Made by a program: the position numbers and the translations under genes. Of a DNA stretch of 64,000 nucleotides, positions 17,659 to 44,972 are shown piece by piece; position 1 is the stretch's first letter, and each line of letters opens with the position of its first letter. A model generated the notes under the pieces. It saw only the letters and a list, made by a program, of their open reading frames with translations. It was not told the DNA's origin and searched no databases. Source of the DNA: Escherichia coli 042 (lineage in GTDB: Bacteria; Pseudomonadota; Gammaproteobacteria; Enterobacterales; Enterobacteriaceae); assembly GCF_000027125.1 (NCBI RefSeq), contig NC_017626.1. One strand, 5' to 3'.

Positions 17659-20154
17659 TTACTGGCAAATATAATTTCTACTTTCATCAATCTCTTTACC
17701 GAAGGTGATTGTGCATGAAAGTCCTTGTTGCTTATCAATTGCTACATTAACCGATGGCGGAACTTCATTGGTGCGAATAAATAACTGGCTTCCCTGGCCG
17801 ACAACGCCAATATTATGACCATGGATATCATTGACTTCATAACCAAACGTTAATGGTTGCCCATCCGTTCTTAACGCTTTTATAAACCAGGGCTTGCGCT
17901 GATCGGTATCAAAATTAACCAGTACAACCGCGCCGCGATAAGGTGCGGCAATTTTCCGGTTACCGCGCAATTCTGCTTCGCTATCGCTTTGCGACACATC
18001 CAGCATCAGGTGATTTTCCCGATAAGGTGTCATTCCGTCGTATACCACCACTCCATTACGGTTTGTTGTGCGATATTTTTGCCCATTGACATAAGCATCT
18101 TTAATTCCTGGCGCATTCATCACTGCAAACGTTTCGGAAAGACGGTTCGCCAGATTAACGCCACCCGACCAGGCGACAATGCCCCCTGAAACACTGGCTC
18201 CAGCCTGTCGATAAGTACTCGACTGACTATAACTGCCATTCACCGTTGCCACCGGCGCGTTCCAGGTTAAATTCGCTCCAGCTGTTGTTTCATTTCCCTG
18301 ATGCTGATGACTCAGGTTGACCCCATAGTTAAATTGATCCCGGTTTCCAACGGTTCCCGATAATCCCGTATTATTTGAGGCAAAACCCTGATCATCAAAC
18401 GTCGTTGAGTTAGACATATATATTTGCCGACGAGGCGTCGTAACGTCATCACCCCAATCAAAGGGAATCGATATAAAAATATTAAAACGTTTCTCTTCAT
18501 GATGATTCTCGTCATAAGCCTGGCTTGCCGCGAGGGTATAGCTTATCCGTCGCAGGTTGTTGGAATAACTCAACTGATAATCCTTACTGCTGCCGCTACG
18601 CCCCCAGTAATCTCGCCATAACGTACTTAAGGACACAGAACCCCAGCCTTCTGGCAATGACTGGCTCATATTGGCAGAAAAGCTATTTTTACGGCCAAAA
18701 TCGTTCTGGTAATAATCGGCAATGTCATAGATATCGTTTTCATCACGGCGATAATTATCTTTATTGTTTGCCCAAACGTGATCGTTAAATGTCCGGTAAT
18801 CACGCGACGAATAACGCCAGGCCGCCAGACCAAAACGCGTCGACGTTTGGCTCACAAATTTGTTGTAGGCAATTTGATAACTTTGCCCGTCAAACACATC
18901 GCCGTTGTCTTGTTTACTATGCGACTTCGTGGCATCGACGGAAATGGCACCAATGCGTGTATTCCAGCTAGTCCCCAAAGTGAACGCGTAATAATTATTC
19001 GCGACCATCGATCCGCCATACAGCGTCAATAAGTTATTAAAACCATACTGATAACCCGCCTGGACAAAATCACTTTGTTTGCTCGCCCCTTCAATATGGC
19101 TACGACCCGCCGCAAAATCATATTTCGACACGCCAGGTTGCAGCATATTCGGCACCGCTGCATAAGGCACCAGATAGGTGGTTACCGAACCGTCCGCCTC
19201 TTTCACGCTGACATCAAGATCTGCTCCACCACCGGCCAACTGCAAATCTGTAATCGCAAACGGGCCAGGAGGAACCTCTTTCTGATAAACCACAAAACCG
19301 TTCTGTTCAATAGTTACCAGCGCGTTACTCTGAGCAATCCCCTGCACCCGTGGCGTAAAATTTTGTTTCGAGTTAGGCAACATCTGCATATCACGAAACA
19401 ACCGCACACCGCTGAAGCGAACAGAATCAAAAATATCGCTTGATGTGTACATATCACCCACGCGAAGCGTGCCGAGAAGTTGGGCAAATCCACGTTCCAG
19501 ATACAGGGTATTGCTTTTCCACACCCCTGGATTGTTATTTGTTTTACTGAAACTGGCATCAGAATGCAGTTGCCACCCCAGTAAATTTAACCCGCTGTTA
19601 AAACGTACATATGTACTCTTGTTATTACCCGACGCTTTATAGTCGCTGTAATACTGACTCACATAATAAGAGGTATAAAACGCATTAATACCCCGCTCCC
19701 AGTTTTCCGGTGGAACATAGCCACTTTCCAGTTCTTCCACCCAAGCCTGCGGGACACTGAAATCGAGACGAAAAACCCCGATATCCCAGCTATAGCTCCC
19801 ACCCTGAACAAGTTGCTCAAATGTTAAACATTGCTTACCACTGGCGAAGTTATCGCTATTAATGCCTAACCGCTTGATAACTTCTCTTGATAAACATGTT
19901 TCTTGCGGGTTGTCTTTAACAATGATCTCATATTTCCCGCGCCATTGCTTATTGACATAAATATCGATGTCATACTGCCCCGGCAAGGGTTGATTATCAT
20001 CAAGACGAATATTTGCAACCTGCTGGTCTTTCATTCCACCTATCATAAAATGGGTATCAAAGGTTTCTTCAGCTGCATAAGCTTCAATGCCGAGCAATAA
20101 CGCTACGATTGCTGATGCAAGTGGGGTCATTCTCAACATAGACAGCTCCTGCAA
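17659..20154 (-). CDS. yehB: Outer-membrane fimbrial usher
   Basis: About 830-aa ORF with usher-family features; start may be 15 nt downstream (MLRMTPLAS...). Confidence 0.88.
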   Translation of the reverse strand: MQELSMLRMTPLASAIVALLLGIEAYAAEETFDTHFMIGGMKDQQVANIRLDDNQPLPGQYDIDIYVNKQWRGKYEIIVKDNPQETCLSREVIKRLGINSDNFASGKQCLTFEQLVQGGSYSWDIGVFRLDFSVPQAWVEELESGYVPPENWERGINAFYTSYYVSQYYSDYKASGNNKSTYVRFNSGLNLLGWQLHSDASFSKTNNNPGVWKSNTLYLERGFAQLLGTLRVGDMYTSSDIFDSVRFSGVRLFRDMQMLPNSKQNFTPRVQGIAQSNALVTIEQNGFVVYQKEVPPGPFAITDLQLAGGGADLDVSVKEADGSVTTYLVPYAAVPNMLQPGVSKYDFAAGRSHIEGASKQSDFVQAGYQYGFNNLLTLYGGSMVANNYYAFTLGTSWNTRIGAISVDATKSHSKQDNGDVFDGQSYQIAYNKFVSQTSTRFGLAAWRYSSRDYRTFNDHVWANNKDNYRRDENDIYDIADYYQNDFGRKNSFSANMSQSLPEGWGSVSLSTLWRDYWGRSGSSKDYQLSYSNNLRRISYTLAASQAYDENHHEEKRFNIFISIPFDWGDDVTTPRRQIYMSNSTTFDDQGFASNNTGLSGTVGNRDQFNYGVNLSHQHQGNETTAGANLTWNAPVATVNGSYSQSSTYRQAGASVSGGIVAWSGGVNLANRLSETFAVMNAPGIKDAYVNGQKYRTTNRNGVVVYDGMTPYRENHLMLDVSQSDSEAELRGNRKIAAPYRGAVVLVNFDTDQRKPWFIKALRTDGQPLTFGYEVNDIHGHNIGVVGQGSQLFIRTNEVPPSVNVAIDKQQGLSCTITFGKEIDESRNYICQ

Positions 20155-20829
20155 TTAAATTTTGTCACTAATATAGTTGCCGTGGTCATCGATAATGGTC
20201 AGATACCAGTTGTTTGCATTATTACTTTTGACATTAACACTCTGACTTTCTAAGGGGGCAATCATAATAGTTTCATAATTGACTTTGACATTATTAGCTT
20301 TGACATCCGAAATCGTCACCCAATTAGCTGAGTCATTTTTTATCACCAATCCATTGCCACTGCGATTTATCAGTAACTTTTTAAAGGTCGCTTTATTCAC
20401 CGGAGCAATACCCGCCGGCCGGTAAAACAATTTGATTCTGTTTTGCATTGCAAATTTCAGTGCATTCTTGCCCTCTTGCTCTGGACTATTTGGTGGAATA
20501 TCCAGAACATTCAGATAAAAAATGCTCTCTTTATTAGTGGGCAGTTTATTCGGCATAATTTTGATTTTTACTTGCTGCCCGGAATTTTCCCCTATTTTTG
20601 CCACTGGTGGCGTTAACATGAAAGGAACCTGAATTTTTTCTGGTGGTAACGACGTATCACCATCATCAATCCACGCCTGCAGCAGCGAAGAACGGTTTCC
20701 CTGGTTCATCAACTGCACCATCACTTCTTTGTGCTCTGCCGGGTAAATAATACGCGTCCCGTAGATAACAATACCGGCATGTGCAGGAAGGACCATAGAA
20801 GAAATGAGTAAAGCTAATAATCCTTTCAT
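20155..20829 (-). CDS. yehC: Periplasmic fimbrial chaperone (PapD-like)
   Basis: 224-aa ORF with signal peptide and chaperone-like fold signature. Confidence 0.85.
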   Translation of the reverse strand: MKGLLALLISSMVLPAHAGIVIYGTRIIYPAEHKEVMVQLMNQGNRSSLLQAWIDDGDTSLPPEKIQVPFMLTPPVAKIGENSGQQVKIKIMPNKLPTNKESIFYLNVLDIPPNSPEQEGKNALKFAMQNRIKLFYRPAGIAPVNKATFKKLLINRSGNGLVIKNDSANWVTISDVKANNVKVNYETIMIAPLESQSVNVKSNNANNWYLTIIDDHGNYISDKI

Positions 20830-20909
20830 CTTAATGCCTCTTAAATTAAAAGGCCGCCATGGGGATAGCGGCCATGTTTATTAACTGGAGAAACTTGAAA
20901 TTTTATTTA

Positions 20910-21452
20910 TTAATCCTGCGCCACACGCATAACCAGAGAAGATAACACATCACCTGATTGCACTGAATTATCTGTCAGCTTCAGGTATTTTGCTTTAAAC
21001 GGAATAGCATATTGACCTTCCGCTGTTTTATAACTCTCAATGTTAAAAGGTGCAGAAACATCCAGGACATCGCTGTTATCACCTAAATAGAGATAGTACC
21101 CCACGGTATCGTTGCTACTGGCTATCGCCTTATCGTTTCCGGTTATTTTATCGTTGGTAATCAACGAGAGTTTTACACCAGCAACTTCTTTCGGACAGCT
21201 AATTTTTAACATGCTGCTGGTTACACCGACTGCATCATCATAGGTCGAGTATTTAGCTTTACCTTCAAAGACAGTGGTTGGTACAGTTGGCATATTAATA
21301 CTTACTGAATCGCCACCCGCTTCGAATTTACACGGAGATTCTGCAATATTCCCTTTAATGGTTAATGTTCCGGTATCAACGTCTGCGGCAAATACCCCAG
21401 CGCTCATAAAAAAAGAAGAAAAGACAGCGGCAGCAATAATTGAACGTTTCAT
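20910..21452 (-). CDS. yehD: Major fimbrial subunit
   Basis: 180-aa ORF with signal peptide and conserved Cys pair; first gene of the operon. Confidence 0.85.
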   Translation of the reverse strand: MKRSIIAAAVFSSFFMSAGVFAADVDTGTLTIKGNIAESPCKFEAGGDSVSINMPTVPTTVFEGKAKYSTYDDAVGVTSSMLKISCPKEVAGVKLSLITNDKITGNDKAIASSNDTVGYYLYLGDNSDVLDVSAPFNIESYKTAEGQYAIPFKAKYLKLTDNSVQSGDVLSSLVMRVAQD

Positions 21453-21675
21453 AATATGTTCCTTAATAAAATTTATTTTTGGTTGTTAAGAGTCTGTGTC
21501 TCTTGGAAACAAATTTCTCACATCAAAAAAGTTGCCGCAATGTAAACACATTGTTTTATTGATTTAAAACAAATTAACTATTGCAATATAAATACAACAA
21601 ATACTTAAGCATATTAAATATTTATCACATCTATTAATTAATGCAGATTTTTGTAAATGGTATTATTGATATCAA
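21453..21675 (-). promoter_or_regulatory. AT-rich promoter region of the yeh fimbrial operon
   Basis: About 220 bp of very AT-rich DNA upstream of yehD; such regions are typical of H-NS-silenced fimbrial promoters (inference). Confidence 0.45.
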
Positions 21676-21713
21676 TAAAAAAGCTGAAATCATTCACACG
21701 AATGATTTCAGCT
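21676..21713 (-). terminator. Rho-independent terminator downstream of yehE
   Basis: Perfect 14-bp inverted repeat agctgaaatcattc/gaatgatttcagct with 4-nt loop, followed on the minus strand by U5. Confidence 0.75.
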
Positions 21714-21746
21714 TTCTAAATCCGATTAAAAAACCAGGGTGGCAAA

Positions 21747-22028
21747 TTAATCGTAGCGATTTAACACGATTCGACGTTTGCTATCGCTACCTGCAACAAC
21801 CACTTCTGTCGTTACACCTTTGACTGGCGAAGAAACCTGATGACGGGTATCAACATCATACGTTAACTGACCACAATGCTGTTGAGGTTGACCATTAACC
21901 ATAGCCATACTGCATGTTGGGGGACTGATCCTGCCATTAATCGTTAATGTGGCAGTCTGTGAAGAGAACGCGGGAGAAGCCATTCCATAGGCAAGAAAAA
22001 TAATTCCTGACAGCCAGTACTTATTCAT
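21747..22028 (-). CDS. yehE: Small secreted protein of unknown function (DUF2574-like)
   Basis: 93-aa ORF with signal peptide; gene order. Confidence 0.7.
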   Translation of the reverse strand: MNKYWLSGIIFLAYGMASPAFSSQTATLTINGRISPPTCSMAMVNGQPQQHCGQLTYDVDTRHQVSSPVKGVTTEVVVAGSDSKRRIVLNRYD

Positions 22029-23531: not shown

Positions 23532-25565
23532 ATGACTCAAGTCGCGAAGAAAATTCTGGTGACGTGCGCACTGCCGTACGCTAACGGCTCAATCCACCTC
23601 GGCCATATGCTGGAGCACATCCAGGCTGATGTCTGGGTCCGTTACCAGCGAATGCGCGGCCACGAGGTCAACTTCATCTGCGCCGACGATGCCCACGGCA
23701 CACCGATCATGCTGAAAGCTCAGCAGCTTGGTATCACTCCGGAGCAGATGATTGGCGAAATGAGTCAGGAGCATCAGACTGATTTCGCAGGCTTTAACAT
23801 CAGCTACGACAACTATCACTCGACGCACAGCGAAGAGAACCGCCAGTTGTCAGAACTTATTTATTCTCGCCTGAAAGAGAACGGTTTTATTAAAAACCGC
23901 ACCATCTCTCAGCTTTACGATCCGGAAAAAGGCATGTTCCTGCCGGACCGTTTTGTAAAAGGCACCTGCCCGAAATGTAAATCCCCGGATCAATACGGCG
24001 ATAACTGCGAAGTCTGCGGCGCGACCTACAGCCCGACTGAACTGATCGAGCCGAAATCGGTGGTTTCTGGCGCTACGCCGGTAATGCGTGATTCCGAACA
24101 CTTCTTCTTTGATCTGCCCTCTTTCAGCGAAATGTTGCAGGCATGGACCCGCAGCGGTGCGTTGCAGGAGCAGGTGGCAAACAAAATGCAGGAGTGGTTT
24201 GAATCCGGCCTGCAACAGTGGGATATCTCCCGCGATGCGCCGTACTTCGGTTTTGAAATTCCGAACGCACCGGGCAAATATTTCTACGTCTGGCTGGACG
24301 CGCCGATTGGCTACATGGGTTCCTTCAAGAATCTGTGCGACAAACGCGGCGACACCACCAGCTTCGATGAATACTGGAAGAAAGATTCCACCGCCGAGCT
24401 GTACCACTTCATCGGTAAAGATATCGTTTACTTCCACAGCCTGTTCTGGCCTGCCATGCTGGAAGGCAGCAACTTCCGCAAGCCGACTAACCTGTTTGTT
24501 CATGGCTATGTGACGGTGAACGGCGCGAAGATGTCCAAGTCTCGCGGCACCTTTATTAAAGCCAGCACCTGGCTGAATCATTTTGACGCCGACAGCCTGC
24601 GTTACTACTACACTGCGAAACTTTCTTCGCGCATTGATGATATCGATCTCAACCTGGAAGATTTCGTTCAGCGTGTGAATGCCGATATCGTGAATAAAGT
24701 GGTTAACCTGGCCTCCCGTAACGCGGGCTTTATCAACAAGCGTTTTGACGGTGTGCTGGCAAGCGAACTGGCTGACCCGCAACTGTACAAAACCTTCACG
24801 GATGCCGCTGAAGTGATTGGTGAAGCGTGGGAAAGCCGCGAATTTGGTAAAGCGATCCGCGAAATCATGGCGCTGGCAGATCTGGCTAACCGTTATGTCG
24901 ATGAACAGGCTCCGTGGGTGGTGGCGAAACAGGAAGGACGCGATGCCGACCTGCAGGCAATTTGCTCGATGGGCATAAACCTGTTCCGCGTGCTGATGAC
25001 TTACCTGAAGCCGGTACTGCCGAAACTGACCGAGCGTGCAGAAGCATTCCTCAATACAGAACTGACCTGGCATGGTATCCAGCAACCGCTGCTGGGCCAC
25101 AAAGTGAATCCGTTCAAGGCGCTGTATAACCGTATTGACATGAAGCAGGTTGAAGCACTGGTGGAAGCGTCTAAAGAAGAAGTGAAAGCAGCTGCCACGC
25201 CAGTAACTGGCCCACTGGCAGATGATCCGATTCAGGAAACCATCACCTTTGACGACTTCGCCAAAGTTGACCTGCGCGTGGCGTTGATCGAAAACGCAGA
25301 GTTTGTTGAAGGTTCTGACAAACTGCTGCGCCTGACGCTGGATCTCGGCGGTGAAAAACGCAATGTCTTCTCCGGCATTCGTTCTGCTTACCCGGATCCG
25401 CAGGCACTGATTGGTCGTCATACCATTATGGTGGCTAACCTGGCACCACGTAAAATGCGCTTCGGTATCTCCGAAGGCATGGTGATGGCTGCCGGTCCTG
25501 GCGGGAAAGATATTTTCCTGCTAAGCCCGGATGCTGGTGCTAAACCGGGTCATCAGGTGAAATAA
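23532..25565 (+). CDS. metG: Methionyl-tRNA synthetase
   Basis: HLGH (HIGH-class) motif near N-terminus, KMSKS motif, C-terminal tRNA-binding domain; start at MTQVAKK. Confidence 0.95.
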
Positions 25566-25604: not shown

Positions 25605-25705
25605 ATAAATTCCTAAAGTTGTTTTCTTGCGATTTTGTCTCTCTCTAACCCGCATAAATACTGGTAGCATCAGCATTCAACTGGATAAAATTACAGGGAT
25701 GCAGA

Positions 25706-28700
25706 ATGAGACACTTTATCTTTCAGGACGAAAAATCACATAAATTCTGGGCGGTGGAGCAACAGGGAAACGAGCTGCATATTAACTGGGGTAAAGTCGG
25801 CACTAACGGGCAAAGTCAGGTAAAAAGCTTTGCAGATGCTGCGGCGGCGGCAAAAGCGGAGCTTAAGCTGATCGCAGAGAAAACGAAAAAAGGCTATGTG
25901 GAAAATGCTTCAGCAAACGTGCATATCCCCCCCATCACCAAAGCCACTCCTGAAGTTGAAACCTCCCTTGAGAGTAAAAACAAACGCCCATGGCTGGCTG
26001 ATGATGCAGTCATTCCGGTCACTGACGATATTAATCGATTTGCTTTTCCTCATCGCTCTCGCCCCAGAGAGATCAATTATCTGTACAAAGATGGTCAAAT
26101 ATGGCAGCTCATCGCGAATAACACCAGGGCATATGATCCCGCCAACAATTACCGTTCTTATCCAGAAAACTGGCAGCAGGCTTTTGCTGAGTTACAAATG
26201 CGAGTTCAGGGTAATCAACAGACAGGGAGTGCACAATCTGATGCAGCATTGCTCTGGAGTTTCTGGAACTCTTACTCTGCAGATGAACTGGTCGATGACT
26301 TAGTCATTCGCTGTGGTCTGGAAAGTGCCGTTGAAATTGCCCTTCTCGCTCTTCAACTTAGATATAAACCAGTAAAAGGCGCAGTAACCACCATCATTCC
26401 ACCTAATCACAAAGCAGAATCGCTGCCGAGTTGGCATCAACGTCTATGTCATCATCTTTCACTCGCTTCAGAAGATGAGTGGCAACGCTGTGTAGATAAA
26501 GTACTCGCCGCCATTCCGACGCTATCCCCAGCACGGCAACCTTTTGCGGCGTTACTGCTCCCCGAATGCCCGGATATTGCCAATGCTATGGCGCTACGTT
26601 ATGCAGATCAAAACGTTCCGGCGATGACCTGGTTAAGACTGGTGGTAACCGATGACGCCGCTCTGACTACAGCAGAAAAATACGACTTCCCACCGTTGTA
26701 TCATGATTTTCGCGCTTATCTGGCAATGTTGCTGGCAAATAATGGGGTGCGCGGTGTAAGCCGGATACTTCTTGAGTTTACGGAAGAGCATTCTGACAAT
26801 CCCACTTATCTTTTCGAGCGTATCAGCGAGACTGAAGATCTTGTCAAATGGCTATGGAAAACGAATCACCCGGATGCGATTCAAATTCTGATCCTCGGTG
26901 TGATTGGCAAGAAAAAGCACCTGGAATACTTAAGCAAAGCCTGTCAAAAACATCCCGCTGCGGCTCTTGCCGCTTATGCTACTTTGCTGGCAATACATGA
27001 AGACAAAGAGTGGCGTAAAGCGCTTGTCAAACTGATTACCGCCACGCCAGAGTTAGTCACTGACGTCATTCCCAGGGTTAATGCTAAAGCGGCAGGAATT
27101 TTATCTGAATGTCGTACTCAGTTAGTCGCTGAAGAATGTGAATACGCCACTGCGGATATGTTGCCGGAGCTGTTTGTCGCTCCACCGTGGGTAATAAATA
27201 AGAAAACGAATGTAATACCCGTATTTGATTTACCGGTGCTTCCCATCCCTGCCGTCACTGACATCACGCCAGGAATTACAGAGTTAATCAGTCATACTGA
27301 CATATCCAGATTCAGTGAAATCGCGCAATTTCAGTCATCACAGCAAACCTTATTTACCGACCTGCCACTAATTGAAAAAGAAAGCTGGGAGACATCTTTC
27401 ATTCCTTTTACACCAGAACAACAAATCCTTTGGCAATTAGGTTTTAATGAATGGCTGCATTGCGAAGATGACTTACATGAAAAAAAATATATACCGCAAA
27501 GCGCTGTTGATGCGTTGTTGCGCTTTGATTTTCCAGCACTAAAAGCTGAGTTTGCGAAATATCACAACAATGCCAACAAAAGCTGGAATCTATCTGCGCT
27601 TTGTTACTTACCGGGACAACAGGCGATTTCATTTCTCAACCAAATAATCATTGAGGAGCGATATTCAGGTGAGAAAGAGATTCTGGCGGTTTTTGGTAGT
27701 ACAGCCATTCCTGCGTTTATGACCTGCTTGCAACGAGATCATCAACGACTGTGGATATTCACCCTCTTTATTGGGGCCAGTGAACTAGCCTTACCAATGG
27801 CGCAGCGGTTACAGAAAAAAATGGCTTACAAGGATGCCGTTAATTGGCTGGCAAATAACCCGCGCCATGCCACCGCCGGGCTACTGCCTTTGGCGCTGGG
27901 CAAACCGTGCCAAAATCGGGAATATGCCCGCCAGGCACTCCGCCTGCTAGTGAAATTAAACCAGCGAGAAACGATTGAAGAAATCGCCCGGAGATACAAC
28001 CAACCTGATGTTTTAGCTGCGCTGGCAACATTGTTCGATAGCGATCCGCTGGAAGAATATCCCGCTAAAATCGCCCCACCGCCCGGCTTTTATCAGTTCA
28101 CCTTATGGCGCAGACCACGGCTTAAAAGTAACAACCTGCCTCTGCCAGATGACGCTATGCGCCACCTGGGCACAATGTTGAGCTTTCCACGCGACATTAC
28201 CGCCTACGCTGGGCTGGCGACCATCAAAGAGACCTTCACCCGCGAATCACTGGCTGACTTTGGCTGGGATCTGTATACCGCATGGACAGAAGCTGGCGCA
28301 CCCGCAAAAGAAAACTGGGCATTTACTTCGCTGGGGATTCTAGGCAATGACGACACCGCGCGTAAACTAACCCCGCTCATCCGCGCCTGGCCGGGTGAAT
28401 CCCAGCATAAACGCGCGGTTTACGGGCTGGATGTGTTAGCCAGTATCGGTAGCGACATTGCGCTTATGTTGCTTAATGGCATTGCGCAAAAGATTAAATT
28501 CGTTGCATTACAGGAACATGCCAGCGACAGAATCAATATGGTCGCCGAAAATCGCGGACTGACAATGGCCGAACTGGAAGATCGCCTGGCACCGGATTTA
28601 GGGCTTGATAGCAGTGGCTCGCTGACACTGGATTTCGGCCCACGCCAATTCACCGTTGGTTTTGACGAAACTTTAAAACCTGTAGTGCGCGACGCAAACG

Positions 28701-29503
28701 GCAAAGTCCTGAAAGATTTGCCCAAACCAAACCAGAGCGATGAAAAAACTCAGGCAACTGACGCGGTTAATCTCTTCAAACAGTTGAAAAAAGATGTACG
28801 CGCCATAGCCAGCCAGCAGATTGATCGTCTGGAACAGGCTATGTGCCAGCGCAGACGCTGGACGGCAGAGCAGTTCCGCCTGTTTCTGGTGGAGCATCCG
28901 CTGGTACGTCACTTAACCCGACGGCTGTTATGGGGGGTTTATAACGATGAAAACGCCCTTATCACCTGTTTTCGCGTGGCAGAAGACAGCACTTACAGCG
29001 ATGCGCAGGATGAGTTATTCACGCTGCCAGCAGGAAACATCGGTATACCGCATGTGCTGGAAATCCCCCCTGAATCCGCCGCTGCATTCAGGCAAATTTA
29101 CGTTGATTACGAACTGCTTCCCCCTTTCCAACAGCTCGAACGTGGTAGTTACCACCTTGCTGATAACGAACGTAATGTCCATGAATTGTCACGCTGGGAC
29201 GGACGGCTCTGCCAGGCTGGTCGCATTGTCGGGCTGGAACGCAGAGGCTGGCAACGTCTGGAAGAAAGCGGCAGCGTCTATGCGATGCGCAAATCTACCC
29301 CTTATGGTGCTCTCGAACTTGAAACAGAACCTTTTTCATTAATTTATGGCGAAACGGGGTATAGCGACCTGCTGCCTGTCGAAAGCGTAAAAATCACCGC
29401 CCCTTATGATCGCTATGGTAAACAATCCTCACCCACTTTCTCCGTGCTCGACGACATCACCGCCAGCGAGCTGATTAACGACATTGAATCACTGTTTGAT
29501 TAA
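25706..29503 (+). CDS. molR: Large WGR-domain / DUF4132-like protein, paralog 1 (molR-like, intact here)
   Basis: 1265-aa uninterrupted ORF; N-terminal about 75 aa (KFWAVEQQGNELHINWGKVGTNGQ...KKGY) fits the WGR domain pattern; C-terminal two-thirds homologous to paralogs 2 and 3. Symbol is a tentative assignment. Confidence 0.75.
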   Translation: MRHFIFQDEKSHKFWAVEQQGNELHINWGKVGTNGQSQVKSFADAAAAAKAELKLIAEKTKKGYVENASANVHIPPITKATPEVETSLESKNKRPWLADDAVIPVTDDINRFAFPHRSRPREINYLYKDGQIWQLIANNTRAYDPANNYRSYPENWQQAFAELQMRVQGNQQTGSAQSDAALLWSFWNSYSADELVDDLVIRCGLESAVEIALLALQLRYKPVKGAVTTIIPPNHKAESLPSWHQRLCHHLSLASEDEWQRCVDKVLAAIPTLSPARQPFAALLLPECPDIANAMALRYADQNVPAMTWLRLVVTDDAALTTAEKYDFPPLYHDFRAYLAMLLANNGVRGVSRILLEFTEEHSDNPTYLFERISETEDLVKWLWKTNHPDAIQILILGVIGKKKHLEYLSKACQKHPAAALAAYATLLAIHEDKEWRKALVKLITATPELVTDVIPRVNAKAAGILSECRTQLVAEECEYATADMLPELFVAPPWVINKKTNVIPVFDLPVLPIPAVTDITPGITELISHTDISRFSEIAQFQSSQQTLFTDLPLIEKESWETSFIPFTPEQQILWQLGFNEWLHCEDDLHEKKYIPQSAVDALLRFDFPALKAEFAKYHNNANKSWNLSALCYLPGQQAISFLNQIIIEERYSGEKEILAVFGSTAIPAFMTCLQRDHQRLWIFTLFIGASELALPMAQRLQKKMAYKDAVNWLANNPRHATAGLLPLALGKPCQNREYARQALRLLVKLNQRETIEEIARRYNQPDVLAALATLFDSDPLEEYPAKIAPPPGFYQFTLWRRPRLKSNNLPLPDDAMRHLGTMLSFPRDITAYAGLATIKETFTRESLADFGWDLYTAWTEAGAPAKENWAFTSLGILGNDDTARKLTPLIRAWPGESQHKRAVYGLDVLASIGSDIALMLLNGIAQKIKFVALQEHASDRINMVAENRGLTMAELEDRLAPDLGLDSSGSLTLDFGPRQFTVGFDETLKPVVRDANGKVLKDLPKPNQSDEKTQATDAVNLFKQLKKDVRAIASQQIDRLEQAMCQRRRWTAEQFRLFLVEHPLVRHLTRRLLWGVYNDENALITCFRVAEDSTYSDAQDELFTLPAGNIGIPHVLEIPPESAAAFRQIYVDYELLPPFQQLERGSYHLADNERNVHELSRWDGRLCQAGRIVGLERRGWQRLEESGSVYAMRKSTPYGALELETEPFSLIYGETGYSDLLPVESVKITAPYDRYGKQSSPTFSVLDDITASELINDIESLFD

Positions 29504-29515
29504 AAGGATTTAACA

Positions 29516-32500
29516 ATGAAAACCTATATTTATCAGGACGAAAAATCACATAAATTCTGGGCGGTGGAGCAGCAGAGAAACGAGCTGCATATCAACTGGG
29601 GCAAAGTCGGCACTAACGGGCAAAGTCAGGTAAAAAGCTTTGCTGATGCTGCGGCGGCAGAAAAAGCGGAACTGAAGCTGATTGCGGAGAAAACAAAAAA
29701 GGGCTACGTAGAAGAAGTATCCGTGATAACACCGACATCTGTCCCCGTCCAGGTTATCGAATGCCCCGAAATAGCCCCTTTGCCACAAGACAAACCAGTA
29801 TTTGTTGGAGACAACCTCCCCTGGCTGGCAGACGACGCCCAAATCATTTTACCGACAGAGGTTGCGCCAACCACACTAAGTCATCGACGCTGGCCTGGCG
29901 ATCCTGTGCCACAGGAGAATGAATTAACTCTGCTACGCTCCGTCGCCGCGAATACTCACCGACGTTTTAAAAAGGTGATCACCTTCGATTACAGCACCTG
30001 TTCACTGGACTGGCAGCAGGCGATAACACAAGCAGTGGGCCTTATCGACTCGCCGATTAGCACCACGCTACCACCGATGGTTCTGGCGGTACTGGTTGCG
30101 CTGGAACAAGGCTTCAATCGTAACGATCACGAAGAGTTAATGGATCAAATTGTCCAGGAAGGTGGTCTGGAATATGCCACTGAGGTTGTCATTGCACTGC
30201 AATTCATCCGCTTCGACTGGGATTATGATGCCCATCTTATTACGTTCACCCCGGATGACAGGCAGCCTGGCTATCTGTTGCGCTTTGCCTCGGTTGAAAT
30301 GCGCCTGCGTAAGCATTTCTCACTTGCAAATGACGATGTATGGCAGCGCTGCGCCGACAAACTGATTGCCGCTCTCGGAAACATGCCCGCCTGGCACCAG
30401 CCGCTGGTTGCACTATTGTTGCCGGAAAAACCAGAAGTAGCTCATGAGATTGCCAGACATTTTTGCGGGCAAAAAGGGTTATATGCGCTGGAATGGCTAA
30501 AACTGACGGTCACCGATGCTCAGGTATTAGCAGACCTGGAAAAATACTATCCAGGACAGCCTGGGCAGGTATTTGATGATTACTATGGCGGTAACATCTG
30601 GTGTGCGACAGCACTCCAGGAGCAAGGAGTCACTGCGCTGGCCCGTTTTGCCCATTACGCTACTGGTGACACATGTGGTGAAGTGTTGATGCATATCAAC
30701 CACCCGCAGGCACTTACACTACTTATCCATGCAAGCGAGCAAGGAAAGCGTTGCCACGATCGCATGACAAAGGCTTTCGTTCGCTTCCCACACGCAGCGC
30801 TGGCGGCATTAGCAGAACTTCTGGCACAAAAAGATGAAAAGCGCTGGCGCATGATGCTAATGACGATGCTTATCTCGCAACCGATACTAGCAGAACAGGT
30901 CATTCCCTGGCTCTCGACACCCGCAGTTGCCGTACTGAAATCATGCCAGCAACAACTGAAACAGCCCTCAAACCATGCCAGCGCCGATATGCTGCCAGCC
31001 ATATTAGTCTCACCGCCCTGGCTTTCGAAAAAGAAAAAATCTGTAATGCCGGTATTGGATTTAACGCCATTACCGCTGGAGTCATGCTGCACATTGACCG
31101 AGACGGCAGAAAAAGAGATTCATGCAAGGCATCGCTGGCACGCACATCAAATAGACATCGGCCAAAAAGAGGATATTCAGAACTACCTGACACGTCTGGG
31201 TTTCAATCGCTGGAATAATGGCCAGTATATGAAAGCGTCTGATGCTGTTGTAGAACTCTGGCAGAGGGGAGATTATTCTGCGCTAATCAGCGAATTTAAA
31301 ACCTTCTGGCACTCCTATCAACGGGAATGGCAACTTTACATGTTAGCCGCCCTGCCTATCGAAAAAACAGCGCAGGCGTGGAATGTCCTCAGTAAAGAGC
31401 CACACGTCGGTGTCGAGTTTGTCATGACGCACCTGCAACTCGCTGGGTTACAGGGTTTTATTCACTCCTTTTCACGCTATCCACAAGAAGCTCTGCCTGT
31501 AGCACAATATTTTGCGGCTATCGAATTAGCGCCACTGATCGCCCGCGCCTTCAACAAACTCAAAACCCTACGACAAGACGCCCGTAGCTGGCTGCTGAAA
31601 TACCCGGAACACGCCATTACCGGCCTGCTGCCCGCGGCGCTCGGCAAAGCCGGTGAAGCCCAGGATAACGCCCGCGCTGCCTTGCGTATGCTTACCGAAA
31701 ACGGTCATCAGCCATTACTGCAAGAAATCGCCCGGCGTTATAACCAGCCGGAAGTAACCGATGCGGTGAACGCTCTGCTTGCGCTCGATGCCTTAGATAA
31801 TCACCCGACAAAAATCCCCACTCTTCCGGCCTTTTATCAGCCATCGCTCTGGACCCGCCCGGTATTAAAAGCAAATGCCCAATCACTGCCAGATAGCGCC
31901 CTCCTACGCCTCGGTGAAATGCTCCGCTTCCCTCAGGAAGAGGCACTGTATCCGGGATTATTGCAGGTGAAAGCCGCCTGTACCGCCGACTCACTGGCTG
32001 AATTTGCCTGGGATCTGTTTACCGCCTGGCAGACCGCTGGCGCACCGTCTAAAGAAAGCTGGGCATTCACTGCGTTAGGTGTTCTCGGCAACGATGACAC
32101 CGCCCGCAAACTGACGCCTTTGATTCGCGCCTGGCCTGGCGAATCCCAGCATAAACGCGCCACCGTCGGGCTTGATATCCTCGCCGCTATCAGCAGCGAT
32201 ATCGCCCTGATGCAGCTTAACGGCATCGCCCAGAAACTGAAATTCAAAGCCTTACAGGAGCGGGCGAAAGAGAAAATTGCCGACATTGCCGAAAGCCGCG
32301 AACTCACGGTAGCGGAGCTTGAAGATCGCCTGGCCCCGGATCTGGGACTGGATGATAACGGTTCGCTGCTGCTGGATTTTGGCCCACGTCAGTTCACCGT
32401 CAGCTTTGATGAAACCTTAAAACCGTTTGTGCGCGATGCTTCCGGCAGCCGCCTGAAAGACCTGCCCAAACCAAACAAAAGCGATGATGAATCGCGGGCT

Positions 32501-33277
32501 GATGAGGCGGTAAACCGCTACAAACTCCTGAAAAAAGATACGCGTACCGTCGCCGCCCAGCAGGTGACAAGGCTTGAATCCGCCATGTGCCTGCGCCGCC
32601 GCTGGTCGCCGGAAAACTTTCAGCTCTTCCTGGTTGAACACCCGCTGGTTCGCCACTTAACCCGCCGTCTGATTTGGGGCGTTTATAGCGCCGAAAACAA
32701 GCTACTGGCTTGCTTTCGGGTGGCGGAAGATAACAGCTACAGCACCGCTGACGATGATCTTTTCACCCTGCCAGAAGGCGATATCTCTGTTGGCATTCCT
32801 CACGTTCTGGAAATATCACCCACGGATGCCGCTGCCTTTGGTCAGCTTTTTGCCGACTACGAACTGTTACCGCCGTTCCGCCAGCTCGACCGTAACAGTT
32901 ACGCCCTGACAGAAACCGAGCGCAATGCCAGCGAATTGATCCGCTGGGCAGGCAGAAAATGCCCGAGCGGTCGGGTAATGGGGCTGGCGAATAAAGGCTG
33001 GATGCGTGGTGAACCGCAGGACGGTGGCTGGATCGGCTGGATGATCAAACCTCTGGGCCGCTGGTCGTTAATCATGGAAATCGATGAAGGTTTTGCGGTC
33101 GGCATGTCGCCAGCCGAACTCAGTGCCGAGCAACTCTTAAGCAAGCTGTGGCTATGGGAAGGCAAAGCGGAAAGCTATGGCTGGGGGAGTAATTCAACAC
33201 AGGAAGCGCAGTTCTCCGTACTCGATGCCATCACCGCCAGCGAACTCATTAACGATATTGAAGCCCTGTTTGAATAA
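29516..33277 (+). CDS. Large WGR-domain / DUF4132-like protein, paralog 2
   Basis: 1253-aa ORF; first about 200 nt nearly identical to paralog 1, central region divergent, C-terminal region similar at protein level; 12-nt gap with SD after paralog 1. Confidence 0.75.
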   Translation: MKTYIYQDEKSHKFWAVEQQRNELHINWGKVGTNGQSQVKSFADAAAAEKAELKLIAEKTKKGYVEEVSVITPTSVPVQVIECPEIAPLPQDKPVFVGDNLPWLADDAQIILPTEVAPTTLSHRRWPGDPVPQENELTLLRSVAANTHRRFKKVITFDYSTCSLDWQQAITQAVGLIDSPISTTLPPMVLAVLVALEQGFNRNDHEELMDQIVQEGGLEYATEVVIALQFIRFDWDYDAHLITFTPDDRQPGYLLRFASVEMRLRKHFSLANDDVWQRCADKLIAALGNMPAWHQPLVALLLPEKPEVAHEIARHFCGQKGLYALEWLKLTVTDAQVLADLEKYYPGQPGQVFDDYYGGNIWCATALQEQGVTALARFAHYATGDTCGEVLMHINHPQALTLLIHASEQGKRCHDRMTKAFVRFPHAALAALAELLAQKDEKRWRMMLMTMLISQPILAEQVIPWLSTPAVAVLKSCQQQLKQPSNHASADMLPAILVSPPWLSKKKKSVMPVLDLTPLPLESCCTLTETAEKEIHARHRWHAHQIDIGQKEDIQNYLTRLGFNRWNNGQYMKASDAVVELWQRGDYSALISEFKTFWHSYQREWQLYMLAALPIEKTAQAWNVLSKEPHVGVEFVMTHLQLAGLQGFIHSFSRYPQEALPVAQYFAAIELAPLIARAFNKLKTLRQDARSWLLKYPEHAITGLLPAALGKAGEAQDNARAALRMLTENGHQPLLQEIARRYNQPEVTDAVNALLALDALDNHPTKIPTLPAFYQPSLWTRPVLKANAQSLPDSALLRLGEMLRFPQEEALYPGLLQVKAACTADSLAEFAWDLFTAWQTAGAPSKESWAFTALGVLGNDDTARKLTPLIRAWPGESQHKRATVGLDILAAISSDIALMQLNGIAQKLKFKALQERAKEKIADIAESRELTVAELEDRLAPDLGLDDNGSLLLDFGPRQFTVSFDETLKPFVRDASGSRLKDLPKPNKSDDESRADEAVNRYKLLKKDTRTVAAQQVTRLESAMCLRRRWSPENFQLFLVEHPLVRHLTRRLIWGVYSAENKLLACFRVAEDNSYSTADDDLFTLPEGDISVGIPHVLEISPTDAAAFGQLFADYELLPPFRQLDRNSYALTETERNASELIRWAGRKCPSGRVMGLANKGWMRGEPQDGGWIGWMIKPLGRWSLIMEIDEGFAVGMSPAELSAEQLLSKLWLWEGKAESYGWGSNSTQEAQFSVLDAITASELINDIEALFE

Positions 33278-33286
33278 GGAAAGAGC

Positions 33287-42975: not shown

Positions 42976-44972
42976 ATTCACTACGTCCGGAATTATTAGA
43001 ACTGACACCACAAGCTTTGACGGCGTTAAGCAATGCCGGTTTTGTTAAGCGCAGCCTTAAAGAACTGGAAAATGGCAACGTCCCGGAAATCAGCCATGAG
43101 AACGGCGCTTTAATCGCCACCTTCAGTGACGGTGTCCGCACCCAGCTGGCGAACGGTCAGGCACTGAAAGAGGCTCAGTGCAGCTGCGGGGCCAGCGGCA
43201 TGTGCCGTCATCGCGTGATGCTGGTGTTAAGTTATCAACGACTTTGTGCCAACGCCCAGCCTACGGAAAAGGAAGAAGAGTGGGATCCGGCAATCTGGCT
43301 GGAAGAACTGGCTACCCTGCCCGATGCCACCCGCAAACGCGCACAGGCGCTGGTCGCTAAAGGCATCACCATTGAGTTGTTCTGTACGCCGGGCGAAATT
43401 CCCTCTGCCCGCTTACCGATGAGCGATGTACGTTTTTATTCCCGCAGCAGCATTCGCTTCGCACGCTGTGATTGTATTGAAGGAACACTTTGCGAACATG
43501 TCGTACTGGCAGTACAGGCCTTTGTCCAGGCCAAAGCGCAGCAAGCGGAATTTACTCATTTAATCTGGCAGATGCGCAGCGAACACGTCACATCATCTGA
43601 CGATCCGTTTGCCAACGATGAGGGCGACGCGTGTCGTCAATATGTTCAGCAATTAAGCCAGGCGTTATGGCTTGGCGGCATCAGCCAGCCGCTTATTCAT
43701 TACGAGGCTGCTTTCAGCCGCGCGCAGCAAGCGGCGGAACGCTGCAACTGGCGCTGGGTAAGTGAATCACTACGACAGCTACGGGCAAGCGTTGATGCCT
43801 TCCACGCCCGCGCCAGTCACTATCATGCCGGAGAATGCTTACGTCAGCTTGCGGCATTAAACAGTCGATTAAATTGCGCACAAGAGATGGCGCGGCGCGA
43901 CAGTGTTGGTGAAGTTCCTCCTGTGCCGTGGCGCACGGTCGTTGGTGCTGGCATTGCCGGAGAAGCAAAGCTTGATCATCTGCGGCTGGTGTCTTTAGGT
44001 ATGCGTTGCTGGCAGGATATTGAGCAGTATGGTTTACGCATCTGGTTTACCGATCCCGACACCGGCAGTATTTTGCATCTTTCACGTAGTTGGCCGAGAA
44101 GCGAACAGGAAAACTCACCGGCAGCGACGCGTCGGCTTTTTAGCTTTCAGGCTGGCGCACTGGCTGGTGGGCAAATTGTTTCACAAGCAGCAAAACGCAG
44201 TGCCGATGGCGAGCTGCTGTTAGCTACCCGCAACCGCTTGAGTAGTGTTGTTCCACTGTCGCCAGACGCCTGGCAAATGTTGAGCGCGCCGTTGCGCCAG
44301 CCGGGCATTGTGGCTTTGCGGGAATATTTACGCCAGCGTCCCCCCGCCTGCATACGACCACTCAACCAGGTCGATAACTTATTTATTCTGCCGGTAGCGG
44401 AGTGTATTTCGCTTGGTTGGGATAGCAGCCGCCAGACACTGGATGCGCAGGTCATTAGCGGCGAAGGGGAAGATAATGTGCTGACGTTATCCCTTCCGGC
44501 ATCTGCCTGTTCTCCTTTTGCCGTTGAACGCATGGCGGCGCTTTTGCAACAAACAGACGACCCCGTGAGTCTGGTTTCTGGCTTTGTCAGCTTTGTAGAG
44601 GGGCAATTGACACTGGAACCACGGGTGATGATGACAAAAACTCGCGCCTGGGCGCTGGACGCAGAAACTGCGCCTGTGGCACCGCTACCTTCTGCCAGCG
44701 TCTTGCCTGTGCCGTCTACCGCTCATCAGTTGCTGATGCGCTGCCAGGCGTTACTTATTCAACTGCTCCATAACGGCTGGCGCTATCAGGAACAGAGTGC
44801 TATTGGTCAGGCAGAGTTGCTGGCGAATGACCTCTCCGCGGTGGGTTTTTATCGGCTGGCACATGTGTTGGCACAATTTCGTAATACAGAAAGCGAGGCA
44901 CGGGTAGAAGCAATGAATAACGGTGTTTTACTTTGCGAACAATTATTCCCCATGCTTCAGCAACAAGGATGA
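42972..44972 (+). CDS. yehQ: SWIM zinc-finger protein with two CxCx5CxH motifs
   Basis: 666-aa ORF; CSCGASGMCRH and CDCIEGTLCEH; ATGA start/stop overlap with yehP. Confidence 0.85.
   Translation: MNSLRPELLELTPQALTALSNAGFVKRSLKELENGNVPEISHENGALIATFSDGVRTQLANGQALKEAQCSCGASGMCRHRVMLVLSYQRLCANAQPTEKEEEWDPAIWLEELATLPDATRKRAQALVAKGITIELFCTPGEIPSARLPMSDVRFYSRSSIRFARCDCIEGTLCEHVVLAVQAFVQAKAQQAEFTHLIWQMRSEHVTSSDDPFANDEGDACRQYVQQLSQALWLGGISQPLIHYEAAFSRAQQAAERCNWRWVSESLRQLRASVDAFHARASHYHAGECLRQLAALNSRLNCAQEMARRDSVGEVPPVPWRTVVGAGIAGEAKLDHLRLVSLGMRCWQDIEQYGLRIWFTDPDTGSILHLSRSWPRSEQENSPAATRRLFSFQAGALAGGQIVSQAAKRSADGELLLATRNRLSSVVPLSPDAWQMLSAPLRQPGIVALREYLRQRPPACIRPLNQVDNLFILPVAECISLGWDSSRQTLDAQVISGEGEDNVLTLSLPASACSPFAVERMAALLQQTDDPVSLVSGFVSFVEGQLTLEPRVMMTKTRAWALDAETAPVAPLPSASVLPVPSTAHQLLMRCQALLIQLLHNGWRYQEQSAIGQAELLANDLSAVGFYRLAHVLAQFRNTESEARVEAMNNGVLLCEQLFPMLQQQG

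Follow-up and report, generated by a model that had tools for sequence, protein, structure and literature searches.

We examined 64,000 nucleotides of the Escherichia coli 042 genome (NC_017626.1; hereafter the window, to which all unlabeled positions refer) and concentrated on the interval between metG and yehR, which holds an array of three large DUF4132 paralogs, a tandem of toxin-antitoxin (TA) units and the four genes yehLMPQ. We propose that the paralog array and yehLMPQ descend from one ancestral operon, which would encode a five-component MoxR-VWA system that was later split and is now eroding in Escherichia; we put the probability of this reading at roughly 60%. It draws chiefly on gene order, which is conserved across six phyla and therefore argues that the paralogs and yehLMPQ are parts of one system. 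The useful new point is that these genes appear to make up a single, widely conserved and uncharacterized MoxR-VWA system related to the Deinococcus ddrTUVWX operon.

The first-pass annotation of this DNA had described three large paralogs, one of them frameshifted, two TA units and a four-gene operon with a nonsense codon in its ATPase gene, and all of these were recovered at the same positions. The interval is flanked by metG upstream, which ends at 25565, and by yehR downstream, with every protein gene on the + strand. The components of the proposed system are:

25706-29503, + strand: par1, an intact open reading frame (ORF) of 1265 amino acids with WGR, helical repeats and DUF4132
29516-33277, + strand: par2, an intact WGR/DUF4132 paralog of 1253 amino acids, the ortholog of K-12 molR
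33287-36918, + strand: yehI pseudogene, 3632 nucleotides, out of frame, a DUF4132 paralog without WGR
38468-39556, + strand: yehL pseudogene, a MoxR-type AAA+ ATPase whose codon 233 is an amber codon
39567-41846, + strand: yehM, a DUF5682 protein of 759 amino acids in which a putative TraB/ChaN-like alpha/beta domain (N-terminal) is combined with a HEAT-like solenoid (C-terminal)
41839-42975, + strand: yehP, a VWA protein of 378 amino acids with an intact metal ion-dependent adhesion site (MIDAS) motif
42972-44972, + strand: yehQ, a SWIM zinc-finger protein of 666 amino acids, intact here

Gene order of the array across bacterial phyla

From an alignment of YehM homologs we assembled 80 loci, one genome per species, and used the E. 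coli proteins as queries against the six-frame ORFs of each. YehL was found in all 80 loci, YehP in 78, YehQ in 76 and a DUF4132 protein in 74, on one strand throughout. The genes follow the order DUF4132 (one to three copies), L, M, P, Q, with the exception of two Burkholderia loci in which the DUF4132 gene comes after Q. Three of the six loci lacking a DUF4132 gene end at a contig edge just before L, and once they are set aside the arrangement holds in 74 of the 77 loci that can be evaluated, which represent six phyla. The loci come from Gammaproteobacteria, Betaproteobacteria, Myxococcota, Actinomycetota and Acidobacteriota, and a Bacillus mycoides plasmid carries the same five genes in the same order. 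A YehM homolog also lies within about 4 kb of the DUF4132 gene in 24 of 30 DUF4132 plasmid records. The first-pass annotation had asked whether the WGR/DUF4132 proteins act with YehLMPQ and had suggested scoring their co-occurrence with MoxR, VWA and SWIM genes across bacteria. Such co-occurrence is the rule in these loci, and the conserved synteny speaks strongly for joint action of the paralogs with YehLMPQ; the TA tandem that had been grouped with them is a secondary insertion in Escherichia, outside the system.

A simpler explanation would be that the paralogs, the TA tandem and yehLMPQ are unrelated neighbors in a recombination-prone, poorly expressed region, where their shared decay reflects relaxed selection on useless genes. 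In the E. coli locus, yehK, hairpins resembling terminators and 1.2 kb of TA units do indeed lie between the two halves, a candidate SOS box stands at the first half only, D. radiodurans has a DUF4132 gene and no ddrTUVWX, and six of the 30 plasmid records have no listed YehM homolog. However, same-orientation adjacency at this frequency (74 of 77 evaluable loci, six phyla) lies far beyond chance, and purifying selection on the intact alleles (see below) implies that the genes are not useless. Unrelated neighbors are thus a very improbable account of the paralogs and yehLMPQ, while that description does hold for the TA tandem and yehK.

Duplication within the cassette is restricted to the DUF4132 gene, and no locus has a second copy of L, M, P or Q. 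In a tree built from the ~600 conserved residues at the C-terminus of the DUF4132 proteins, the paralogs group by lineage (Enterobacteriaceae, Massilia, Lentzea, Actinomadura, Glycomyces), which shows that the duplications are lineage-specific and arose independently in several lineages.

More distant DUF5682 systems were seen on a Hymenobacter plasmid (L103, 4183-12422) and on other plasmids, in Bacteroidota, Alphaproteobacteria (Rhizobium, Methylosinus), Fusobacterium and Proteus. Some of these have a DUF5691 protein of 1009 amino acids and no separately annotated SWIM gene. The family extends beyond the 80 loci studied.

Structure and variation of the adaptors and the YehLMPQ core

The DUF4132 paralogs, which we call adaptors, share a common architecture. 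In Par1, Pfam places WGR at residues 5-69 and DUF4132 at residues 999-1182, and a sequence search of the PDB with Par1 matched the WGR domain alone. The adaptor C-terminus is HEAT-like (predicted local distance difference test, pLDDT, 91.4) and then forms a small alpha/beta domain at its end, for which only marginal matches were obtained. WGR is not a fixed part of the architecture: of 96 near-full-length DUF4132 proteins 60 have it, while for yehI no WGR match was obtained at E<=10.

Within the species, we searched 5,426 complete RefSeq E. coli genomes, a set that excludes the source genome itself, and scored a systematic sample of 20, drawn as alternate rows of a ranking over all 5,414 matching records with A10 and K-12 added. 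Three paralogs are present in 8 of the 20 and two in the other 12. The gene absent from the two-paralog genomes, K-12 included, is par1, which is carried by ~40% of the sampled E. coli; the array of these strains begins with the par2 ortholog, whose protein is 92% identical to the product of the EC15 par2 allele and 47% identical to Par1. Lesions of the paralogs in the sampled genomes comprise stops, frameshifts and IS1.

The alleles of par2 diverge deeply in the N-terminal part of the protein. When the type found in the window is aligned with the EC38/K-12 type, blocks of 100 alignment columns share 31-83% identity up to column 800 and 92-99% from there on. The divergent part covers the first ~800 codons, where synonymous divergence (dS) between alleles runs from 0.6 to saturation, and the last ~500 codons encode the conserved part. 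Since dS in the divergent part is close to saturation, we favor allelic lineages of old age or the import of segments as the source of the pattern, and positive selection is not demonstrated by it. Strain TB06053 (L098, 5570-8602) has a third par2 allele, annotated as intact, of 1010 amino acids and without approximately alignment columns 600-900.

The neighboring paralogs vary in other ways. The nearest public genome to the window is that of E. coli A10, at 99.4% identity, and 116 of the 194 differences between the two fall in par1 (26000-29999), with only 2 in the following 16 kb, suggesting that the first paralog has a recombination patch. In yehI, the middle ~350 bp (34660-35013) align to the K-12 and EC15 alleles only via many compensating in-frame indels, making this a second hypervariable patch, in the third paralog. 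We considered whether the whole locus is hyperdivergent, given that the interval is 93-94% identical to other E. coli and its flank 97.5%, and rejected this, since dS per gene confines the divergence to the paralogs. These alone are unusually diverse within E. coli, with dS of 0.16-0.37 and a ratio of nonsynonymous to synonymous divergence (dN/dS) of 0.20-0.26.

The four core proteins retain their predicted functional motifs. YehL keeps GEPGTAKS (residues 83-90, Walker A), RFEEITR (154-160) and ATANT (200-204) in at least 90% of 84 sequences; we read the second as the putative Walker B motif and the third as a probable sensor 1. Its nearest solved relatives by sequence are the Midasin AAA modules and MoxR 2r44. 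In YehP, the MIDAS residues DQSGSM (222-227), T256 and D307 are kept in at least 90% of 81 sequences. Pfam assigns residues 56-88 of YehQ to SWIM, and the CxC...CxH ligands C70, C72, C78 and H80 are kept in at least 90% of 77 sequences. Pfam DUF5682 spans YehM, in which two GxxH motifs and one glutamate are invariant or nearly so. These residues may be the signature of the TraB/ChaN/erythromycin-esterase-like superfamily, and a hydrolase role for YehM is possible.

Neither YehM nor YehQ found a solved relative in the PDB sequence search. A scan of eight proteins of the locus against PADLOC-DB 2.0 (E<=0.01) matched zero families, and in NCBIfam the proteins gave a match at the WGR level, weak ones to MoxR and VWA and nothing else, with YehP being CoxE-like and YehL weakly GvpN-like.

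Insertion and decay in Escherichia

Between yehI and yehL lie yehK and two TA units:

36979-37284, + strand: yehK, an ORF of 101 amino acids
37293-37316, no strand assigned: GC-rich palindrome AAGGGGGAAACGGTATTCCCCCTT, an inverted repeat directly 3' of yehK, with a repeat copy at 37901-37924
37338-37427, - strand: zor toxin copy 1, an ORF of 29 amino acids, MDTLTQKLTVLIAVLELLVALLRLIDLLK
37673-37746, + strand: Orz antitoxin small RNA (sRNA) copy 1, Rfam RF02083 OrzO-P, 91.7 bits (gathering score 60)
37946-38035, - strand: zor toxin copy 2, an ORF whose 29-amino-acid product is identical to that of copy 1, with a promoter-like site at 38244-38217
38281-38356, + strand: Orz antitoxin sRNA copy 2, Rfam RF02083, 101.3 bits (gathering score 60), with a promoter-like site at 38239-38267

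The spacer between yehK and yehL measures 1184 bp here and 306 bp in K-12, while in Klebsiella the last paralog lies ~190 bp from yehL. Homologs of yehK occur in two of the 80 loci, both from Escherichia, and yehK matched no family in the PADLOC and NCBIfam scans; it is annotated as frameshifted in 6 of the 20 sampled genomes. Given the restriction of yehK to Escherichia and the ~190-bp gap in Klebsiella, yehK and zor-orz are later, Escherichia-only insertions that split the ancestral operon. The palindrome AAGGGGGAAACGGTATTCCCCCTT is likely to be a two-way terminator for the paralog-yehK transcript and for the zor mRNA, although a consensus terminator scan did not list the palindrome at 37293-37316.

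The spacer itself consists of two 608-bp direct repeats, 91% identical, each of them a zor-orz unit with back-to-back TTGCAA/TATAAT promoter-like sites. In the first unit, the zor site at 37636-37609 agrees with the published zor elements (PMC11264685), the Orz site lies at 37631-37659, and a 26-nucleotide match joins the region of the toxin 5' untranslated region (37495-37520) to Orz (37661-37686). Zor toxicity and its repression by Orz have been shown for the EDL933 locus (PMC3919570). The tandem in the window is this already published zor-orz locus, unrelated to the ATPase system. Across matching E. coli, ~37% carry two units, ~27% one unit and ~36% only a 215-bp remnant covering orz. This distribution reproduces that of the published survey, in which more than 30% of genomes, MG1655 among them, are orz-only (PMC11264685). 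The K-12 spacer (L002, 14847-14922) holds an orphan OrzO-P antitoxin gene (99.9 bits) and no zor toxin ORF; of the TA tandem, which the first-pass annotation had as absent from K-12, the toxins are missing there and this orz gene remains. The O157-like strain UTME-1 has the same toxin sequence as the window together with a T3S (ZorP) variant, in agreement with PMC11264685.

The first-pass annotation had taken the interval for an evolutionarily fluid accessory island; the genome comparison does not support an accessory island. The interval is matched in 5,412 of the 5,426 genomes and yehL in 5,216, always between metG and yehR, and the locus occupies this site in at least 96% of the genomes. 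In the sampled genomes only metG and yehR flank it, and the borders carry no annotated integrase or other mobility gene and no annotated tRNA gene, although no dedicated tRNA scan was run. In yehLMPQ, dS is 0.12-0.14, similar to that of metG (0.11), and dN/dS of the intact alleles is 0.034 for yehL, 0.064 for yehP, 0.10 for yehQ and 0.12 for yehM, with 0.025 for metG. These low ratios indicate that yehLMPQ is maintained by purifying selection where it is intact.

The variation in content and intactness that had also been suggested is, by contrast, real, as is recurrent pseudogenization: the pan-genome comparison proposed at that time, run here as the match to 5,426 genomes and the scoring of 20, found two or three paralogs, zero, one or two zor copies in about equal thirds, and yehLMPQ broken in 8 of 20. 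Every component is intact in 6 of the 20, and yehLMPQ in 12; this sample is small and some of the frameshift annotations may be assembly errors, which counts against the picture of erosion. The eight disruptions are independent: one genome has a frameshift in yehP, one a frameshifted yehL combined with a stop in yehM, two have frameshifts in yehM, one has a stop in yehM and another IS421 within that gene, K-12 has its yehQ stop, and in one a deletion fuses yehI to yehM. The fusion, in strain NRZ88308 (L095, 7915-11607), joins the start of yehI to yehM with loss of yehK, zor-orz and yehL, and is similar to one described in lineages 2 and 3 of Shigella sonnei. Published lesions at the locus include an insertion of TnMB1860 in ST131 (PMC9334617) and a Shigella sonnei deletion of yehM, yehL and zorO (PMC12795559). 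A fully intact cassette is found in the natural isolates EC38, F437, L725, 25POL, JJ1887 and TB06053. K-12 is a double mutant, in which molR is a pseudogene and yehQ is truncated by a stop at codon 615; the difference in molR state that the first-pass annotation had pointed to was borne out, par1 and par2 being intact here. The locus is decaying in many E. coli strains, including the one studied here.

Two lesions affect the present genome. The frameshift of yehI is caused by a 13-bp deletion at ~33344, near codon 20, which we mapped against K-12 and EC15 and which is not a homopolymer slip. It is common to A10 and to 31 records among 5,312 matching genomes, from human, cattle, poultry and wild-bird isolates and from different laboratories. 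Because it is identical in A10 and in these records, the deletion is genuine and marks a lineage. In yehL, codon 233 (39164-39166) reads TAG in place of CAG, the sole difference from A10 in this gene and one carried by none of the 5,426 genomes. This stop is private to the genome and represents either a mutation of very recent origin or an error in base calling; a genuine stop would remove the C-terminal third of the ATPase. With the amber codon and the lineage-fixed yehI deletion, the cassette is probably dead in this genome.

We also weighed whether the lesions of the window are sequencing or assembly artefacts, the system being intact here. The yehL stop, as a single C>T change found in no other genome, would fit this, and frameshifts in long-read assemblies may be errors. 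The 13-bp deletion in yehI, however, recurs identically in 31 independent assemblies from various hosts and laboratories, and many lesions of other strains are stops, insertion sequence (IS) insertions and deletions, which makes artefact a very improbable explanation. Invariance of the interval, with lesions that are artefacts, had been named as what would overturn the first-pass view: position is nearly invariant, whereas intactness varies and the yehI lesion is real, with the private yehL stop left as a possible read error.

Beyond these genes, the downstream 18 kb of the window are 100% identical to strain CB6837 and ~97.5% to most E. coli. Upstream, in the yeh fimbrial operon (20000-22000), GC content falls to 0.38-0.41, lower than at any point of the interval other than the zor-orz spacer (0.41-0.43). 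Compared with A10, the fimbrial genes yehB and yehC contain single-base indels at 19935 and 20633, and the A10 copies are annotated as frameshifted.

A possible role in DNA damage and relation to known systems

The upstream sequence of the array offers one indication of function:

25679-25698, + strand: candidate SOS (LexA) box AACTGGATAAAATTACAGGG of the CTG-N10-CAG form, 7 bp before the par1 start codon

This box is identical in 18 of the 19 sampled E. coli with the intergenic region, and precedes the first paralog, whether of par1 or of par2 type. molR has been listed among LexA-regulated genes with a known SOS box (PMC6590174). The strict LexA consensus has no match within 3 mismatches in the window, where only this weaker, published-type box was found. 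No SOS box was found upstream of yehL, and the terminator-like hairpins and TA units lie between it and the paralogs. Published work shows that H-NS binds the yehL-yehM intergenic region and that the genes are derepressed in hns/stpA mutants.

A second indication comes from Deinococcus. The five-gene operon ddrTUVWX of D. deserti is among the most radiation-induced of the IrrE/DdrO regulon, and its products are, in order, a SWIM protein, a protein of unknown function, a MoxR ATPase, a further such unknown protein and a CoxE-like VWA protein (PMC5552922, PMC2669436). A plasmid operon of D. taeanensis has the order SWIM, DUF5691, AAA, a 78-amino-acid ORF, DUF5682, VWA. Full-length matches mark its AAA, VWA and DUF5682 proteins as orthologs of YehL (E=8e-75), YehP (5e-64) and YehM (4e-37), and the similarity between its SWIM protein and YehQ is weak and confined to the zinc finger (E=0.019). 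A perfect palindrome of the radiation/desiccation response motif (RDRM), TTATGTTTCTGGCGTAA (L101, 4723-4739), lies 20 bp upstream of the D. taeanensis SWIM gene and predicts control of the operon by DdrO. In D. radiodurans, which lacks ddrTUVWX, DRA0166 (DUF4132) and DR2173 (WGR) are DdrO targets induced by mitomycin C. Taken together, both halves of the E. coli cassette thus have damage-responsive relatives, under two unrelated regulators.

These relationships allow a further reading, which we advance tentatively and hold to be somewhat doubtful. The adaptors and YehLMPQ would be a previously unrecognized damage-inducible machine, present in several phyla and sister to DdrTUVWX, in which a MoxR-VWA motor and a TraB-like hydrolase are aimed by diversifying adaptors at damaged or foreign nucleic-acid-protein targets. 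Under our main reading, the five-component system would consist of the core and of one to three large adaptors, each with an optional N-terminal WGR, a variable helical-repeat middle and a conserved HEAT-like C-terminus ending in DUF4132. DNA damage would lead to production of the adaptors, whose WGR and variable repeats would recognize a nucleic-acid or protein target while the conserved C-terminus docks on the YehLMPQ core. The MIDAS site of YehP would then pass the target to a YehL hexamer for ATP-driven remodeling, and YehM may process it. On the tentative reading, the machine would have escaped study because K-12 is mutated in both molR and yehQ and the downstream half is silenced by H-NS. 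In Escherichia, the insertion of yehK and zor-orz, with their terminator-like hairpins, probably uncoupled yehLMPQ from the SOS promoter and favored silencing and decay.

Several observations weigh against a link of the system to DNA damage. Upstream of the first DUF4132 gene, 60 loci of other taxa contained no LexA-type or Cheo-type box, and SOS control of the cassette may therefore be specific to Escherichia; the sequence CTGGGAAGTGGAGCAG, which recurs in the other-taxon loci, lies inside the WGR coding sequence. The D. taeanensis operon matches ddrTUVWX by domain order and the RDRM motif, not by sequence comparison. Profile alignment (hhalign) of DUF5691 with the DUF4132 C-terminus and with YehQ gave no relation, in what is a weak test with DUF5691 represented by a single sequence. 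The links of the core and of the adaptors to damage rest on separate observations, and a DNA-damage role of the cassette is one that we infer rather than show.

The main rival is a conflict system directed against phages or mobile elements, in which the diversifying WGR/DUF4132 proteins would act as sensors of invader molecules, the response would fall to the MoxR-VWA core and the hydrolase-like domain of YehM, and SOS induction would couple it to prophage induction or incoming DNA; it is compatible with SOS control. Several features would suit such a system: the putative sensor gene is the only one to duplicate, and does so repeatedly; the N-terminal two thirds of par2 are 31-83% identical within the species and the C-terminus 92-99%; loss is frequent, as is typical of dispensable immunity genes; the locus is silenced by H-NS, has copies on large plasmids in several phyla and contains a type I TA locus. 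On the other hand, none of the eight proteins matches PADLOC, and no nuclease, NADase or pore effector is recognizable among them. The cassette sits at one fixed chromosomal site in at least 96% of E. coli, unlike a variable defense island, and is absent from phage genomes, where YehM was found only on one unannotated 14-kb fecal contig. Moreover, the saturated dS of the divergent alleles points to old lineages or recombination rather than to demonstrated positive selection. We consider a conflict system unlikely on this balance.

If the reading as one damage-linked system is correct, it would give one unit and a damage context to eight E. coli y-genes and to the unexplained ddrTUVWX operon of Deinococcus. 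Both cassette and ddrTUVWX belong to a large set of MoxR-VWA systems whose clients are unknown. K-12 and the source genome are natural mutants of the system, and the model strain would have given no phenotype because it lacks intact molR and yehQ. The locus also offers an example of how a TA insertion splits an operon, to be followed by silencing and piecemeal gene loss.

Comparison with known systems places the parts of the interval as follows. The TA tandem resembles zorO-orzO/zorP-orzP of E. coli O157:H7 in its tandem units, 29-amino-acid toxin, divergent Orz sRNAs and TTGCAA/TATAAT promoters (PMC3919570, PMC11264685); it differs in that both toxins are of the ZorO type (T3, A20) and is otherwise the same. 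The molR pseudogene of K-12, a gene of the LexA regulon, has its intact counterparts in par1 and par2, which share its upstream CTG-N10-CAG box (PMC6590174). The old name of molR, "molybdate metabolism regulator", finds no support in the domains of par1 and par2; we rejected the molybdate reading, since this domain content has no molybdate link and the Deinococcus authors saw molybdate genes unchanged.

The E. coli locus and ddrTUVWX are alike in their SWIM protein, MoxR AAA+ ATPase and CoxE-like VWA protein, and the D. taeanensis version shares DUF5682 as well. They differ in that the ddrTUVWX type has DUF5691 in place of the WGR/DUF4132 adaptors, places the SWIM gene first and is controlled by DdrO through the RDRM rather than by LexA. 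With WGR/DUF4132 instead of DUF5691, the E. coli locus is best described as a probable sister variant of the DdrTUVWX-type system and not as a member of it.

Background knowledge of MoxR-VWA families points to ATP-driven remodeling of a specific client. The YehL system is like the pairs RavA-ViaA, CbbQ-CbbO, NorQ-NorD, CoxD-CoxE and GvpN in that a MoxR AAA+ protein is encoded with a VWA/MIDAS partner. It differs from them in having no adjoining metabolic enzyme complex and in adding three obligatory partners, the DUF5682 protein, the SWIM protein and the DUF4132 adaptor.

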